Source of the DNA: Dehalococcoidia bacterium
Lineage (GTDB): Bacteria; Chloroflexota; Dehalococcoidia; Lucifugimonadales; UBA3495
Reading direction: 5' to 3'
DNA length: 64,000 bases
Assembly (NCBI GenBank): GCA_965232815.1
Contig: OZ247427.1
Span: 403,684-467,683, forward strand
Notes under the pieces: generated by a model
The model's input: the letters and a program-made list of their open reading frames with translations, nothing else
The model's database searches: none
What the model was told of the DNA's origin: nothing
In this document: one piece after another, positions 24,708 to 34,989 of the stretch
Numbering within the stretch: position 1 is the stretch's first letter
How the letters are laid out: each line of letters starts with the position of its first letter
Translations under genes and position numbers: made by a program

Positions 24708-24952
24708 TGAGTGCGTCCGTCCGAGTTGGCCTCGTGTTCGCCATCGCCCGGTTCAGGCCTCACAATCTCCCGGATCCTGCGATCAATGCGAAACCGCGGG
24801 ATCATTATGTGATGGTCGCACGTCTGGCAGCGCAACCCGATGTCGCCGCCCACCCGGTTCACCAGCCAGTTGAACCCGCCGCACGGATGCGCCTTTTTCA
24901 GCCGGACTATATCCCCCGGCCTCAGGTCCGCTACCCTGGGCGGTCCCGTCAT
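24704..24952 (-). CDS. DUF951-family small protein
   Basis: 'GDIVRLKKAHPCGGFNWLV.RVGGDIGLRCQTC' is the DUF951 pattern. The ATG at 24952 overlaps the pyrF stop (ATGA). Confidence 0.75.
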   Translation of the reverse strand: MTGPPRVADLRPGDIVRLKKAHPCGGFNWLVNRVGGDIGLRCQTCDHHIMIPRFRIDRRIREIVRPEPGDGEHEANSDGRTQ

Positions 24953-25824
24953 TTCTCCGTCGGTCGCCATCCCAGGCCCATGCTGTTCAGCGTGTCGGTG
25001 ATGCCGTCCCGCAACTCGCTCGCAGCCGCTCGTGCCGCCTCCGCGTAATCCGTACCCGACGAGGCGTAGATTATCCCCCGTCCGGAGTTGATGATCGCCA
25101 TTCGACCATGCCGGTCCACGCCATTGCGCACGCTGGCCTCCAGGTCACCGCCCTGTGCTCCCACGCCCGGGATCAGGATCGGCTCATCGGGACACGCCTG
25201 CCGCACGTTGGCCAGTTGCTCGGGCACCGTCGCACCCACCACCAGGCCCAGATTCCCGCCCGCCGACAGACTCGCCAGGCTGCGCGCCAGCCTCATGTAC
25301 ACCTGCTCCCCGCCGTCAACCGCCAGGTCCTGCAAATCTCCGGCACCCGGATTCGACCCCCGGCACCACACGATGATCCCGCCGTTCCCCCGATCCAGCC
25401 ACGGCTCGATCGTGTCCATCCCGCCCCACGGATTCACCGTAACCGCATCAAAGCCCCACACTTCGAACATCGCCGTCGCATACGCCTCAACGGTGTTGCC
25501 GATGTCGCCGCGCTTCGCGTCTATGATAATCACAGCATCCGGCACGGCGTCCCGAATATGCGACACCGTCGCCTCCAGCGCCCGCAACCCGGGGATTCCC
25601 AACGCCTCGTAAAACGCGATATTCGGCTTGTACGCGCAGACCAAATCGGCCGTGGCATCCACGATCGCCCGGTTGAACTCCACCACGGCCCGCTCATCCT
25701 GAGCCCGTCGAAGGACCGACGCCGGCATCAACGCCGGATTCACGTCCAGCCCGACGCACACCAAACTCTGCGTAGCCTCGCTGGCCGCCAGCAATCTATC
25801 CGAAAAACTCGTCATATCAACCAA
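24949..25824 (-). CDS. pyrF: Orotidine-5'-phosphate decarboxylase (type 2)
   Basis: 'LVCVGLDVNP', 'AYKPNIAFYEALG' and 'IIIDAKRGDIGNT' are present. Confidence 0.9.
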   Translation of the reverse strand: MVDMTSFSDRLLAASEATQSLVCVGLDVNPALMPASVLRRAQDERAVVEFNRAIVDATADLVCAYKPNIAFYEALGIPGLRALEATVSHIRDAVPDAVIIIDAKRGDIGNTVEAYATAMFEVWGFDAVTVNPWGGMDTIEPWLDRGNGGIIVWCRGSNPGAGDLQDLAVDGGEQVYMRLARSLASLSAGGNLGLVVGATVPEQLANVRQACPDEPILIPGVGAQGGDLEASVRNGVDRHGRMAIINSGRGIIYASSGTDYAEAARAAASELRDGITDTLNSMGLGWRPTEK

Positions 25825-26252: not shown

Positions 26253-26301
26253 GCTCAACCCCAACCATCTACCTGACGCCAACATCATTCCTGACGCCCA
26301 C

Positions 26302-26347
26302 CGTCATTCCTGACACTGACGTCATTCCTGCGAAAGCAGGAATCCAG
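26302..26347. repeat. Family-A repeat (GNRA hairpin ATTCCYGC-GAAA-GCRGGAAT), 46-nt composite copy upstream of larE
   Basis: 'cgtcattcctgacactgacgtcattcctgcgaaagcaggaatccag'. A further partial 'catcattcctgacg' sits just upstream. Confidence 0.85.
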
Positions 26348-26407: not shown

Positions 26408-27274
26408 TTGGCGGCAGCAATTATGACACAACCAAATTCCAATCACTCCAGTGCTCCCCCGGACTGCCTCCCTCGCCTCGAGTCCATCCTCCGCGACATG
26501 CAATCCGTCATCGTCGCCTGCTCCGGCGGCGTCGACAGCACCCTCCTGGCGGTGGCAGCCCAACGCGCGCTGGGTAGCCGCGCTTTGGCCGTCACCGCCG
26601 TCTCCCCCGCCCTCGCCGCCCGCGACCTCGCCGATGCCGAATCCATAGCGACCCAGTTCAACCTGAACCATCGCGTCATCCGCACCGACGAGTTGCAACG
26701 CGAGGGCTACGTCGCCAACTCACCCCAGCGCTGCTATTTCTGCAAGACCGAACTCTACGACCAACTCGGCGCTCTCGCCACCGCCGAGGGCTATGCGTGG
26801 ATCGCCAACGGCGCCAACACCGACGACCTCGGCGACTACCGCCCCGGCATGACCGCCGCCTCCGAACACAACATCCGCAGCCCCATGGTCGAAGCCCAGA
26901 TGGACAAGGCCCAGGTGCGCGAAGCCGCCCACTGGCTTGGCGTCCCCCTCTGGGACAAACCCGCCCAGCCCTGCCTCTCATCCCGAATCCCCTACGGCAC
27001 CCCCGTAACCGTCGAGTCCCTCCGCCGCATCGAAGCCGCCGAGGACATCCTGCGCGACCTCGGCCTCCGAGAAGTCCGCGCCCGCCACCACGACAAACTC
27101 TGCCGCATCGAGGTCGCCGCCGACCAGATGGAAATGGCCTTCTCCCACCGCGACGAAATCACAACCCAGCTAAAATCCCTCGGCTACCTCTGGGTCTCCC
27201 TCGACCTCAACCCCCTCCGCTCCGGCAGCCTCAACGACGTCCTCAAAACCAAATCAGCAAGCCACCCGGCGTAG
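26408..27274 (+). CDS. larE: ATP-dependent sacrificial sulfur transferase LarE (PP-loop ATPase)
   Basis: 'VACSGGVDSTLLA' (PP-loop) and 'PCLSSRIPYG' (LarE-type cysteine). The track start is TTG and the first ATG is at 26423. Confidence 0.85.
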   Translation: MAAAIMTQPNSNHSSAPPDCLPRLESILRDMQSVIVACSGGVDSTLLAVAAQRALGSRALAVTAVSPALAARDLADAESIATQFNLNHRVIRTDELQREGYVANSPQRCYFCKTELYDQLGALATAEGYAWIANGANTDDLGDYRPGMTAASEHNIRSPMVEAQMDKAQVREAAHWLGVPLWDKPAQPCLSSRIPYGTPVTVESLRRIEAAEDILRDLGLREVRARHHDKLCRIEVAADQMEMAFSHRDEITTQLKSLGYLWVSLDLNPLRSGSLNDVLKTKSASHPA

Positions 27275-27309
27275 GCGCAAGGCACACCCCACCCGTCCCT
27301 CTATCCTCA

Positions 27310-27355
27310 CGTCATTCCTGACACTGACGTCATTCCTGCGAAAGCAGGAATCCAA
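27310..27355. repeat. Family-A repeat, 46-nt composite copy downstream of larE
   Basis: Identical to 26302..26347 in 45 of 46 positions, in the same orientation. Confidence 0.85.
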
Positions 27356-27468
27356 AGAATCCTCGCAACAGCAGCCAGGAGGCACCCGCCGCAGGTCGCA
27401 ATAACATCGGCCGTTTTAACCAAACCACCCATCCGCCTCGCAACCATCAATATCAAGACCCAACCGCA

Positions 27469-27495
27469 ATCCCGTCCATCCTGCCCATCGATGTC
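27469..27495. repeat. Family-B 27-nt element
   Basis: 'atcccgtcc atcctgccc atcgatgtc', ending 16 nt before the larC ATG. Confidence 0.65.
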
Positions 27496-27510
27496 AATAA
27501 ACGGGCCCCC

Positions 27511-29352
27511 ATGAAAACCGCCTACATCCAGTCCGTCGGCGGCGCCAGCGGCGACATGCTCCTCGGCGCACTCCTCGACGCCGGCCTCCCTCTGGACGCC
27601 ATCCACGCCGCCATCACAGCCCTGAACATCCCCGGCGTCAAAATCAAGGCGGCCGACGAAATCCGCTGCGAAGTCCGCGGAACCCGCGCCCTGGTCGACA
27701 CGTCCGAATCCCCACGCTATTCGCCCCAACAGATGCTCGACGCCGTGGCGGGCGGGACAACGCTATCCGACTCCACGCGCACGCGCGCAACCGCCGTCCT
27801 GAAAGCCCTCTTCGCCGCCGAAGCCCGCGTCCACGGCAACAGTCCCGATGATATCCACCTCCACGAACTCGGCACCGCCGACACCCTCGTGGACGTTGTA
27901 GGAGTCGTCCACGGCCTGGAGCAACTCGGCGTCCAGCGCATCTACGCATCGCCGCTCGTCCTCGGCGAAGCCACTGGCCCGCGCCGACCCGGCGGTTACA
28001 GTAACCCCGCGCCGGCCACCCTCGAAATCATAGCCGCCGCCAGGGCCCCCGTCGCGCCCGACCGACCCTTCCACGCCAACGTCGGCGAACTCACGACCCC
28101 CACCGGCGCAGCCCTCATCACCACCCTCGCCGACGAATACCGCCAGCCCGCCATGACCCTCAACCGCATCGGCGTAGGCGTAGGCGGCAAAAACCCCCCA
28201 GCCTTCCCAAACGTCATCCGCCTCTGGCTCGGCCAGACCGTCCCATCAGTACGCCCCAACCAATCCAATCATTCCCCCGGGCCCAGTGCCGCCGCCCAAT
28301 CCGATCACTCGCCCGAATCCGGCGACCCTGACCATTCCCACGCGTCCGGCGACTCTGACCACTCACTCGCATCCCGCGACTCTGACCATTCCCAACTTTC
28401 CCTTTCCCCCGTTACTCCCGCATCTCCTCGTCATTCCCGCGAAAGCGGGAATCCAGAACCTCCACAATCCGCTATTTCTGAGACTCGCAGAGCACCCCAC
28501 ACCGCTCATGGTGAGCCTGTCGAACCACCAACCGACCAGATTCCGACAGCCGCCCCTGACAGGAACCATCGCACCGATACCTTTTCCCCACGTCATTCCC
28601 GCGAAAGCGGGAATCCAGCACCCTCCCAATCCGCTCATGGTGAGCCTGTCGAACCACGAGCAGCCGGAATGCCAATCGGGTCCGCCGGTGGCAACCGCCA
28701 ATCAGATGTCGAAATGTCGCAAGACCCTGGCACCCATGCCACCCGTCATTCCCCCGAAAGCGGAAATACAGAAACCCTCCAGTCCACTCATAGCGAGCCA
28801 GTCGAACCACGAGCAGCCAGCAACCAACCACCCCCAACCCTAGAAACCGTCCGCGCCGCCGCCCTCGACGCCTACCGGAACCAAGCCGACCCCAACCGTC
28901 ATTCCCGCGAAAGCGGGGGTCCAGAAACCGCCGGCGACCCCAACGTCCCCTTCGCCCGCTGGCAGGACAACATCATCATCCTCGAAACCAACATCGACAA
29001 CGCCACCGGCGAGCAACTCGGATTCGCCATGGACCAGCTCTTCGCCGCCGGAGCCCTCGACGTCTGGCACACCCCCATCCAGATGAAAAAAAACCGCCCC
29101 GGCATCCTCCTGTCAGCCCTGGCGCCCGCCAACCTCGAAACCCAACTGGCCGAAGCCATCCTCCGCCACACCCCAACCCTCGGCGTCCGAGTCCGACCAG
29201 TAGGCCGCTACGTAGCCGACCGCGACACCATAACCGTCCAAACCGAATACGGCCCCATCCGCATCAAACGCAAATGGCTATCCGGCCAAATCCTCACCAT
29301 CTCCCCCGAACACGACGACCTAGTTGCTTTAGCTCGCCACGACCTGTATTAG
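27511..29352 (+). CDS. larC: Nickel-pincer cofactor biosynthesis protein LarC (DUF111) with a greatly expanded inter-domain linker
   Basis: N-terminal 'MKTAYIQSVGGASGDMLLGALLDAG' and 'HELGTADTLVDVVG'. C-terminal 'ILETNIDNATGEQLGFAMDQLFAAGALDVWHTPIQMKKNRPG'. 613 aa; I recall about 400 aa as typical. Confidence 0.85.
   Translation: MKTAYIQSVGGASGDMLLGALLDAGLPLDAIHAAITALNIPGVKIKAADEIRCEVRGTRALVDTSESPRYSPQQMLDAVAGGTTLSDSTRTRATAVLKALFAAEARVHGNSPDDIHLHELGTADTLVDVVGVVHGLEQLGVQRIYASPLVLGEATGPRRPGGYSNPAPATLEIIAAARAPVAPDRPFHANVGELTTPTGAALITTLADEYRQPAMTLNRIGVGVGGKNPPAFPNVIRLWLGQTVPSVRPNQSNHSPGPSAAAQSDHSPESGDPDHSHASGDSDHSLASRDSDHSQLSLSPVTPASPRHSRESGNPEPPQSAISETRRAPHTAHGEPVEPPTDQIPTAAPDRNHRTDTFSPRHSRESGNPAPSQSAHGEPVEPRAAGMPIGSAGGNRQSDVEMSQDPGTHATRHSPESGNTETLQSTHSEPVEPRAASNQPPPTLETVRAAALDAYRNQADPNRHSRESGGPETAGDPNVPFARWQDNIIILETNIDNATGEQLGFAMDQLFAAGALDVWHTPIQMKKNRPGILLSALAPANLETQLAEAILRHTPTLGVRVRPVGRYVADRDTITVQTEYGPIRIKRKWLSGQILTISPEHDDLVALARHDLY
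28249..28956. repeat. Repeat-rich block inside larC: 4 family-A hairpins, 3 family-E hairpins and a short 'gactctgaccat' repeat
   Basis: Family A at 28429..28456, 28591..28618, 28744..28771 and 28897..28924. Family E at 28505..28528, 28634..28660 and 28787..28813. Translated in frame as 'RHSRESGNP' and 'HGEPVEP'. Confidence 0.85.
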
Positions 29353-29354
29353 CG

Positions 29355-30092
29355 TCAATCAGTGCCAAAATAACCGGCATCCATAGCCCAAATCAACATA
29401 CTAGAAAACTCGTTGCTCCGGTGCGTATAGTGCCTTAACCAACGTCGTAGTACCCTATCGGGCTTCCCTGCCGCTTTAAGGGCATTCCACGTCTGCAACG
29501 CTTTCGTTAAATAGTTCCTTCGCAAAAAGGGAAGGTTACGATTAAGGATAGTATCGTCATAGTTTAGGCGTAGGTCCCGGATCGTCCTATTAGCGATATC
29601 TTGGTCAGCTGACGAGTCCAAGTTCGGCTTCGAAACAATTTTGCCGGTCTCAAATTCAATCGAAAAATATCTCTCGACATCATGATCCCTGGGGTTCACG
29701 TAGCCTTGGGCGAACTCAGCTGCGAATCTGCCGTCATCCTTTTCATCGTTACAGCGTTTACACACATACATCAGATTGGTCCACTCGAACGTCTTGGCAT
29801 TGCAGGCGCTGCGTGGGTGGAAATGATCCACACGATTGGCAGATGGAGGGATGTTTGATGTACTGCAAGCCCTTTCACAATAGGCACAGATACCTTCATT
29901 CGGGTTCGGGTTCCCTCTTTCAAATACGGTGGGCAAGCGAGGTGCGCCGAACTGGCCGGCTAACGCGATCATTAGCGTGACATGCTCATCACTTGACAAG
30001 TCCCATACGAACTCACCAGTTTCAGCATTTCTGTGATCCAGTTTAAATGATTCCAAGCAGGCAGGCGATTCTTGGTGTTGGACAGAATGCAT
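29355..30092 (-). CDS. ptuB: HNH endonuclease, TIGR02646/PtuB-like (Septu nuclease component)
   Basis: 'CAYCE...VDHFHPRS...WTNLMYVCKRCNDEK' is an HNH core. The downstream 'YVNPRD...ANRTIRDLRLNYDD' fits my recollection of the TIGR02646 family. The ATG overlaps the upstream TAA (TAATG). Confidence 0.75.
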   Translation of the reverse strand: MHSVQHQESPACLESFKLDHRNAETGEFVWDLSSDEHVTLMIALAGQFGAPRLPTVFERGNPNPNEGICAYCERACSTSNIPPSANRVDHFHPRSACNAKTFEWTNLMYVCKRCNDEKDDGRFAAEFAQGYVNPRDHDVERYFSIEFETGKIVSKPNLDSSADQDIANRTIRDLRLNYDDTILNRNLPFLRRNYLTKALQTWNALKAAGKPDRVLRRWLRHYTHRSNEFSSMLIWAMDAGYFGTD

Positions 30093-34858: not shown

Positions 34859-34901
34859 TTACCATTCCGAGTTCGCCGGATTATACCCGACTCCCCAATC
34901 A

Positions 34902-34989
34902 CACCCGCTCATCTAGCCTATCTCATACGCTCATCTCCCCAGTCCCACCTGCTCATCTCCTCTATCTCACCCGCTCATCCTGAGCCTGT
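34902..34989. repeat. Four tandem 22-nt repeats
   Basis: 'cacccgctcatctagcctatct / catacgctcatctccccagtcc / cacctgctcatctcctctatct / cacccgctcatcctgagcctgt'. The last unit merges into the family-E hairpin at 34976..34998. Confidence 0.8.

Follow-up and report, generated by a model that had tools for sequence, protein, structure and literature searches.

The larC gene in a 64,000-nucleotide stretch of the genome of an uncultured Dehalococcoidia bacterium (hereafter the window) encodes the nickel enzyme LarC with its two domains joined by a linker of 242 residues, within which copies of two dispersed hairpin repeats, denoted A and E, are read in frame. The explanation that we favor, and hold with considerable confidence, is a tolerated, near-neutral accretion of repeats, similar to that of Rickettsia palindromic elements (RPEs), in a permissive linker of a larC gene that is under selection and is translated as a single polypeptide. 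The source genome (G000) is a single-contig metagenome-assembled genome (MAG), 92.6% complete with 4% contamination.

Domain architecture of LarC and length of its linker

The larC frame contained no stop codon over 27511-29349. PF01969 (Ni_insertion) was the sole Pfam match in the gene, in two stretches of which the N-terminal part covered residues 5-246, and the NCBIfam models LarC1 (TIGR00299) and LarC2 (NF052512) matched residues 81-240 with 146 bits and residues 488-604 with 144 bits, respectively. Residues 485-608 aligned with residues 263-390 of the chain of full-length M. thermoacetica LarC (PDB 12bi), and the LarC2 domain matched PDB 6bwo and 12bi with E values of 4e-22 and 6e-19. Given that query residues 242 and 485 at the edges of the insert face chain residues 254 and 263, the normal tether comprises ∼8 residues, compared with 242 here. 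An initial annotation, made from the letters of the window, had proposed, as one of two alternatives, a tolerated linker of ∼235 residues that could be sized against a characterized LarC. Both points hold: the insert of 242 residues is predicted to be disordered, is made partly of dispersed repeats and lies at the point where congeners carry 9-270 residues. Residues E104, H108, H116 and H118 were invariant in alignments of 16 and of 119 relatives. In these residues, in its two domains, in the adjacent larE gene and in the junction at which the tether lies, the protein resembles LarC of M. thermoacetica and L. plantarum (PMC13510736; 12bi, 6bwo). It differs in the length of the tether, 242 residues as against 13 in M. 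thermoacetica, and lacks the stop and frameshift of L. plantarum.

Among 18 congeners, larC was found in 17 (no match in G012) and was intact everywhere, in open frames of 401-574 residues. The stretch from LWLG(E/Q)T to PFARWQDN was hypervariable in these genomes. The linker had ∼8 residues in G003, the shortest among the congeners, and ∼80-100 in G016 and G018, where it holds A and E copies of its own; across 104 close relatives its median length was 24 residues, and the extremes were 9 and 270. Most of the expanded linkers in this larger set contained at least one of the peptides RHSxESxNP (from A), HGEPVEP (from E) and IASEAxQS, the last being the peptide of a third hairpin family, and in one relative A was read in another frame (SFLRKQESS). 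Given this hypervariability across the genus and the repeat peptides carried by expanded linkers, the LarC1-LarC2 junction is a genus-wide hotspot, with the most extreme expansion in G000 and its nearest relatives.

A long linker was also observed in five independent assemblies from different samples (P0002-P0006), in proteins of 627-659 residues with 75-93% protein identity. Codon alignment of the long-linker genes revealed at least eight separate gap blocks, every one of them in frame, which included extra 27-nt units, a 33-nt piece and a swapped middle segment; in P0006, a 153-nt tandem duplicate with 97% identity was present. Whole linker segments were exchanged or missing between close relatives. 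A comparison of orthologues for the presence or absence of repeat copies, as had been suggested, thus revealed in-frame gains and losses of units in P0002-P0006. Over 28249-28956, the frame in use contained no stops, in agreement with the read-through first described, compared with 1 and 8 in the +1 and +2 frames and 3, 10 and 2 in the minus frames; of the six frames, five are free of stops in element A and four in E. The observation that other frames are partly open is therefore correct, and the open frame is only partly surprising; what calls for explanation is the retention of LarC2 in frame, which is informative.

Hairpin elements A and E within and outside larC

The repeats named in the initial annotation were all present in the linker: four A elements, three E elements, of which the third is degenerate, and a tandem array, with A found in intergenic DNA as well (Table 1). 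Matches to the A motif in larC fell at 28430-28456, 28592-28618, 28745-28771 and 28898-28924, and together with the intergenic copies at 26321 and 27329 they made six matches, against 0 expected by chance. The predicted fold of A1 had an energy of -13.8 kcal/mol (z -4.9). A composite of A and E had been described as a unit repeated three times, and an 87-nt unit of this kind was indeed found three times at spacings of 162 and 153 nt. Its interpretation as a mobile unit was rejected: genome-wide, the A-13nt-E spacing occurred only in larC. Given its absence elsewhere in the genome, the composite is a unit of local duplication.

Table 1. Coordinates of larC, its domains, the repeats in its linker and adjacent features in the window
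Feature	Position	Strand	Basis or remark
larC	27511..29352	+	uninterrupted 613-aa open reading frame (ORF); ORF reading, Pfam, NCBIfam, PDB alignment
LarC1 (nickel-binding) domain, residues 1-242	27511..28236	+	aligns to PDB 12bi chain 19-254
Expanded inter-domain linker, residues 243-484	28237..28962	+	without counterpart in PDB 12bi
27-nt (9-codon) tandem array, read xHSxxSGDx	28267..28410	+	Tandem Repeats Finder (TRF) period 27, 2.9 copies, 28317-28394
A1, read RHSRESGNP, perfect 8-bp stem, GAAA loop	28429..28456	+	exact NTS consensus match
E1 core, read AHGEPVEP, outer stem gone	28503..28528	+	fold z -0.9, no better than shuffles
A2, perfect stem	28591..28618	+	exact NTS match
E2 core	28632..28657	+	fold z -0.26
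A3, decayed, 6/8 stem pairs, read RHSPESGNT	28744..28771	+	motif match
E3, degenerate, read THSEPVEP	28785..28810	+	motif match
Helix block PPPTLETVRAAALDAYRNQ, clade-conserved, not a genomic repeat	28828..28887	+	AlphaFold2 alpha-helix
A4, 6 Watson-Crick and 2 G-U pairs, read RHSRESGGP	28897..28924	+	motif match
LarC2 (CTP-binding) domain, residues 485-608	28963..29334	+	PDB 6bwo and 12bi, NF052512
larE, ATP-dependent sacrificial sulfur transferase, directly 5' of larC	26408..27274	+	NCBIfam TIGR00268 equivalog 321 bits; PP-loop Pfam matches
Intergenic A with 18-nt array of its 5' half-site	26272..26347	+	A 26321-26347; TRF period 18, 3.2 copies, 26272-26330; half-sites -38, -19
Intergenic A, larE-larC gap, one 5' half-site duplicate	27310..27355	+	A 27329-27355; half-site -19

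When the linker was compared with the genome by blastn, only the A and E cores recurred elsewhere, corresponding to ∼1/3 of the insert; the repeat-derived share rises to ∼1/2 if the A-derived 27-nt array is included. Thus, the description of the insert as ∼700 nt of intergenic-type repeats was right as to its in-frame nature and overstated as to the extent of the repeats. The spacers and the 20-residue helix block were unique to larC in the genome, and residues 243-484 include the stretch ...HSRESGNPEPPQSAISETR. In register with A, the 27-nt array was identical at 13-16 of 27 positions, whereas within the domains identity averaged 7.1 positions and never exceeded 14; the copy number of the array differed among relatives. 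The array probably consists of degenerate head-to-tail A units or of A 5' half-sites. No family was matched in an Rfam scan of the window, and an intron or intein was not supported, Ni_insertion being the sole Pfam match in the gene.

The A copies in larC match the Neisseria NTS consensus CGTCATTCCCGCGMAVGCGGGAATCYRG (PMC11893778). The genome consensus of A, C-CGTC-ATTCCtGC-GaAA-GCaGGAAT-CCAG, has each feature of the CGTC-1 repetitive extragenic palindromic (REP) sequences: the CGTC tag, an 8-bp stem starting with AT, a 4-nt loop and a CCA tail (PMC3733652). Judged by this correspondence of sequence and stem, A is an NTS/SRM element (CGTC-1 REP, dRS3 type). At five mismatches or fewer the genome contained 51 copies, 40 of them outside gene calls, the calls behind these genome-wide counts being rough; one such call with an A dimer (C1:1888856-1890238) looks like an antisense shadow ORF and was left uncounted. 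Congeners carried 0-316 copies each. Perfect stems were found in 36 of the 47 A copies outside larC, with five covarying variants, and the larC copies of relatives were often decayed to 5-7 pairs. Both A copies in larC of G016 carry a compensated stem variant, which suggests turnover or conversion.

A stand-alone gene for a 95-residue GIY-YIG protein (PF01541, 62.5 bits at C1:1816438-1816656) lies between two A copies in inverted orientation, located at 1816389-1816416 and 1816718-1816745 (G000:C1:1816389-1816745; L027 1450-1810). The same arrangement of a GIY-YIG gene between inverted A copies was observed in G013 and G015, and congeners with a close GIY-YIG homologue contained a mean of ∼125 A copies, compared with ∼25 in those without. 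A search of this protein against PDB yielded nothing beyond spurious WD40 rows, in which no stretch was matched. On the strength of its architecture and its Pfam match, the protein is a candidate for an Ssn nuclease in Dehalococcoidia. A RAYT or Y1 transposase was rejected as the mobilizer, none having been found in the genome.

Element E is a 38-nt hairpin family with the consensus GTCCGCTC-A-TGGT...ACCA-C-GAGCGGAC, the predicted fold of which has an energy of -20.9 kcal/mol (z -3.6). A literature search with the DNA and peptide strings of E found no description of it. Copies of E in other coding sequences were also observed. A NadB-like FAD enzyme (G000:C1:1741749-1743377) contains two in-frame E copies read VVRQAHHER, and PyrF (window 24949-25824, minus strand) contains an E-like segment at 25691-25716 read LRRAQDER; Pfam domains span the in-frame inserts of both genes. 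A pair of paralogues without a Pfam match, 271 and 301 residues long (G000:C1:183834-184649 and 3132792-3133697), contain one E each, read SAHGEPVEPRA, and in both of them E is adjoined by the repeat peptide NPVNPVHPC.

The orientation of the elements tracks the sign of the local GC skew and not the gene strand, for 46 of 51 A copies and 87 of 90 E copies. Genome-wide, a given strand of each element is found on whichever DNA strand is locally rich in C, which in larC is the coding strand. Read in this orientation, A has no stop in any of the three frames, and E has none in two of them. Given that orientation follows GC skew, the orientation of the repeats in larC is the genomic default and is not evidence of frame selection. 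Outside larC, 15 of the 51 A copies were preceded by one to three tandem 5' half-sites at a spacing of 18-22 nt, against a background of 0.03 per 70 nt, and a comparable 22-nt array was present at an E copy (34891-34979). The half-site arrays lay directly 5' of complete A or E hairpins and almost never 3', a pattern suggestive of duplication in a preferred direction at A and E. Copies of A or E in the window lie at 25691, 26321, 27329, 28430-28924, 33979 and 34972; over the contig, the elements are concentrated in 100-kb bins with strong skew, the sign of which flips many times.

Selection on the linker and competing explanations

Ratios of non-synonymous to synonymous substitution (dN/dS), obtained by the Nei-Gojobori method among five long-linker genes, were 0.68-0.90 for the linker, 0.08-0.21 for LarC1 and 0.05-0.40 for LarC2, the domain values being mostly 0.25 or lower. 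By this measure, the linker evolves near-neutrally while both domains stay constrained. An AlphaFold2 run with 119 sequences modeled both domains well, with a predicted local distance difference test (pLDDT) score mostly of 85-97 for LarC1. Residues 248-436 had a pLDDT of ∼30 and no secondary structure, and a helix was predicted with confidence at residues 444-459 (pLDDT ∼88). The linker contains 14.9% Ser, 14.5% Pro and 6.6% His, and its hydrophobic fraction is 0.21, compared with 0.44 in the domains. The block containing this helix had a pN/pS of 0.34 (21 pairs), is shared with G016, G018 and many relatives and has no second copy in the genome; this 20-residue helix is the sole piece of the linker under constraint.

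These observations can be accommodated by a model in which the flexible tether between LarC1 and LarC2 would offer the two hairpin families a permissive place in which to land and grow. Once seeded, the linker would gain further elements and expand by local tandem duplication of units of 27 nt derived from A, of 153 nt comprising A, E and a spacer and, in one relative, of 15 nt. Only length changes divisible by three would survive; the array in larC has a period of 27 nt, as opposed to the 18-22 nt seen elsewhere, and only a period of this kind preserves the frame. The product would be a tether rich in Ser, Pro, His and Glu, predicted to be disordered and drifting almost neutrally. In the structure of M. 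thermoacetica LarC, the LarC1 domains are arranged as trimers, and the LarC2 domains make up a hexameric core. A long linker would be tolerated because these are separate assemblies that need only a tether.

Short tagged hairpin REPs are mostly intergenic and sometimes lie in frame within known genes, as became apparent when these genes were aligned with shorter homologues (PMC3733652), and larC shares with the intragenic CGTC- and GTAG-tagged REPs, and with RPE-4 and RPE-6 of R. conorii, both the in-frame hairpins and the existence of shorter homologues. The repeats here are in frame, the host gene is intact and constrained, orthologues without the insert exist and the site is a permissive linker, as would be expected of an RPE-like case. 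In CGTC hosts, as in G000, no Y1 or RAYT transposase was found. The present case differs from those in PMC3733652 in the size of the coded insert (242 residues, compared with 43-82 for the largest clusters), in the mixing of two repeat families with local tandem amplification, in the occupation of one site genus-wide by linkers of 9-270 residues and in its host, a member of the Dehalococcoidia rather than the Proteobacteria.

Several observations weigh against this explanation. For about half of the insert, no source could be identified. In the 19 genomes of the genus that were searched, linker length bears no relation to genome repeat load: G014 and G017 contain >300 A copies yet have short linkers, and G000, with 36 copies, has the longest. 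Since linker length does not follow repeat load, a "landing pad" is not a full account. In M. thermoacetica LarC, activity fell below 10% when the 13-residue linker was deleted, shortened, rigidified or replaced (PMC13510736), so that impaired function might be expected of a tether 18 times longer, although lengthening was not tried in that study. Finally, a LarA homologue (PF09861) was not found in the genome.

A more far-reaching interpretation, which we regard as rather doubtful, is that the linker is a live record of the propagation of Ssn-associated SRM and E elements that is creating new protein, with the helix already selected and the His-rich product perhaps exploited for nickel. The elements would then be oriented by replication strand, depend on single-stranded DNA and grow by tandem duplication of 5' half-sites, and both the disordered region and the helix would have been born from selfish repeats.

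An adaptive linker has a smaller chance still of being correct. The linker would act as a repeat-built, His/Asp/Glu-rich device for capture or storage of nickel for the histidine patch of LarC1, or as a tether giving the LarC1 trimers extended reach or exchange. The enzyme works with nickel, and its function is sensitive to the linker, which here contains 6.6% His, against 2.3% in the proteome, and has a net charge of -13. His-containing short tandem repeats (SGDxDHSxA, DHPST, HSDPHxR and SRHSQ) arose in the linkers of several lineages, the frames of A and E used in relatives are nearly always hydrophilic and His-bearing, and a conserved helix lies within. However, all of the surplus His falls within the cores of A and E and the 27-nt array derived from A; the other 128 residues contain 2.3% His, equal to the proteome average. 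Co-option for nickel binding therefore has no independent signal, and the proposal that LarC makes use of its linker was not borne out. The dN/dS of 0.7-0.9, the swapping or loss of segments between close relatives, the many congeners that manage with 9-25 residues and the reading of E as SAHGEPVEPRA in the 271- and 301-residue paralogues likewise argue against a selected function.

Slightly less probable again is a split or decaying gene, in which LarC1 and LarC2 would be made separately through internal initiation or drop-off at hairpins, or in which larC would be a non-functional relic. In L. plantarum, two frames give rise to LarC1 and to full-length LarC (PMC13510736), and the initial annotation was correct in citing a larC that is split and fused by frameshifting. 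The transcript of the present gene would contain two perfect A hairpins of -13.8 kcal/mol, in-frame ATG codons occur in the linker at residues 387 and 403 only, and no LarA was found. Against this, no stop or frameshift was observed between LarC1 and LarC2 in larC or in six relatives, seven genes in all; purifying selection acts on LarC1 and LarC2 alike in the clade with long linkers, and the indels are all in frame. The two internal ATG codons are missing in P0003 and P0005, and no in-frame ATG, GTG or TTG lies within the last ∼80 nt before LarC2. A promoter and terminator scan of 27200-29500 gave no such site inside larC, the sole promoter-like match (29402-29431) falling 3' of the larC stop. 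In addition, larC has larE as its neighbor, and the genome encodes a LarB-like protein. Expression as two polypeptides, and the internal start before LarC2 that it would call for, consequently received no support, and the best reading of the gene is that LarC is translated as one polypeptide. We infer that the LarC protein is made and active, and likewise the mechanism of element gain outlined above. The chance that a repeat-induced mis-join or collapse produced the insert is negligible, since five additional assemblies, made from different samples, show the same architecture with coherent divergence and with proteins that are 75-93% identical, even though the genome is a single-contig MAG assembled from long reads and repeats are prone to mis-assembly.

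Gene neighborhood and implications for LarC and its repeats

Away from larC, the genome encodes a LarB-like AIRC protein of 264 residues (C1:679773-680162). With no LarA found in this genome, a cofactor user of AKR type, as in PMC13524815, is one possibility. At the 3' end of larC (window 29320-29355), the C-terminal tail ...DDLVALARHDLY before the stop is shorter than, and unlike, the tail ...DDLAAAVNAHSPPHQTVANAV... of relatives, and the gene ends 2 nt from a Septu HNH gene, which in relatives overlaps larC. Given these two differences, the boundary of a Septu cassette swap seems to lie inside the 3' end of larC. Two relatives, P0085 (G003, L013) and P0040, carry a 19-residue in-frame insert in LarC1 that partly repeats the histidine motif region (...ADIHHHELADADTPVGDYLDQIHLHELG...), so that the nickel-binding IHLHELG segment is present in two similar, non-identical versions. 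On the P0006 contig (L024, 355-1126), larE is not one 283-residue gene; two ORFs of ∼125 residues on opposite strands were found instead, and larE may be disrupted there or the assembly in error.

For element A, the closest known system is that of Ssn, the GIY-YIG single-strand nucleases that recognize NTS/SRM motifs in other bacteria (PMC11893778). The likeness extends to the complete identity of the larC A copies with the NTS consensus of N. meningitidis, to the layout of a small GIY-YIG gene between inverted motifs (NTS-ssn-NTS), found in three species of the genus, and to a higher motif load in gene-carrying genomes. The passages of that paper that were searched make no mention of translated motifs, 5' half-site arrays or orientation by strand asymmetry. 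The analysis connects repeats that are translated with the NTS/SRM-Ssn system in Dehalococcoidia, and the strand-asymmetry orientation and 5' half-site arrays would, if confirmed, constrain how the elements spread.

With regard to LarC itself, the 2026 study (PMC13510736) concluded that linker length, flexibility and composition all matter, having tested deletion, shortening and 10-residue replacements only. Given that lengthening was not tried there, the clade described here bears on this conclusion: a large natural lengthening of the LarC tether persists under selection. The genus provides a natural series of linkers of 9-270 residues with near-neutral sequence, which suggests a possible lower limit to length and little upper limit. 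The insert is among the largest built in frame from repeats that were found in the literature, where the comparison paper reports up to 82 residues, and for annotation it indicates that long low-complexity inserts of this type are not to be read as gene fusions, pseudogenes or new domains. In summary, larC of this SAR202 host is an extreme but recognizable case of selfish repeats translated inside a working gene.

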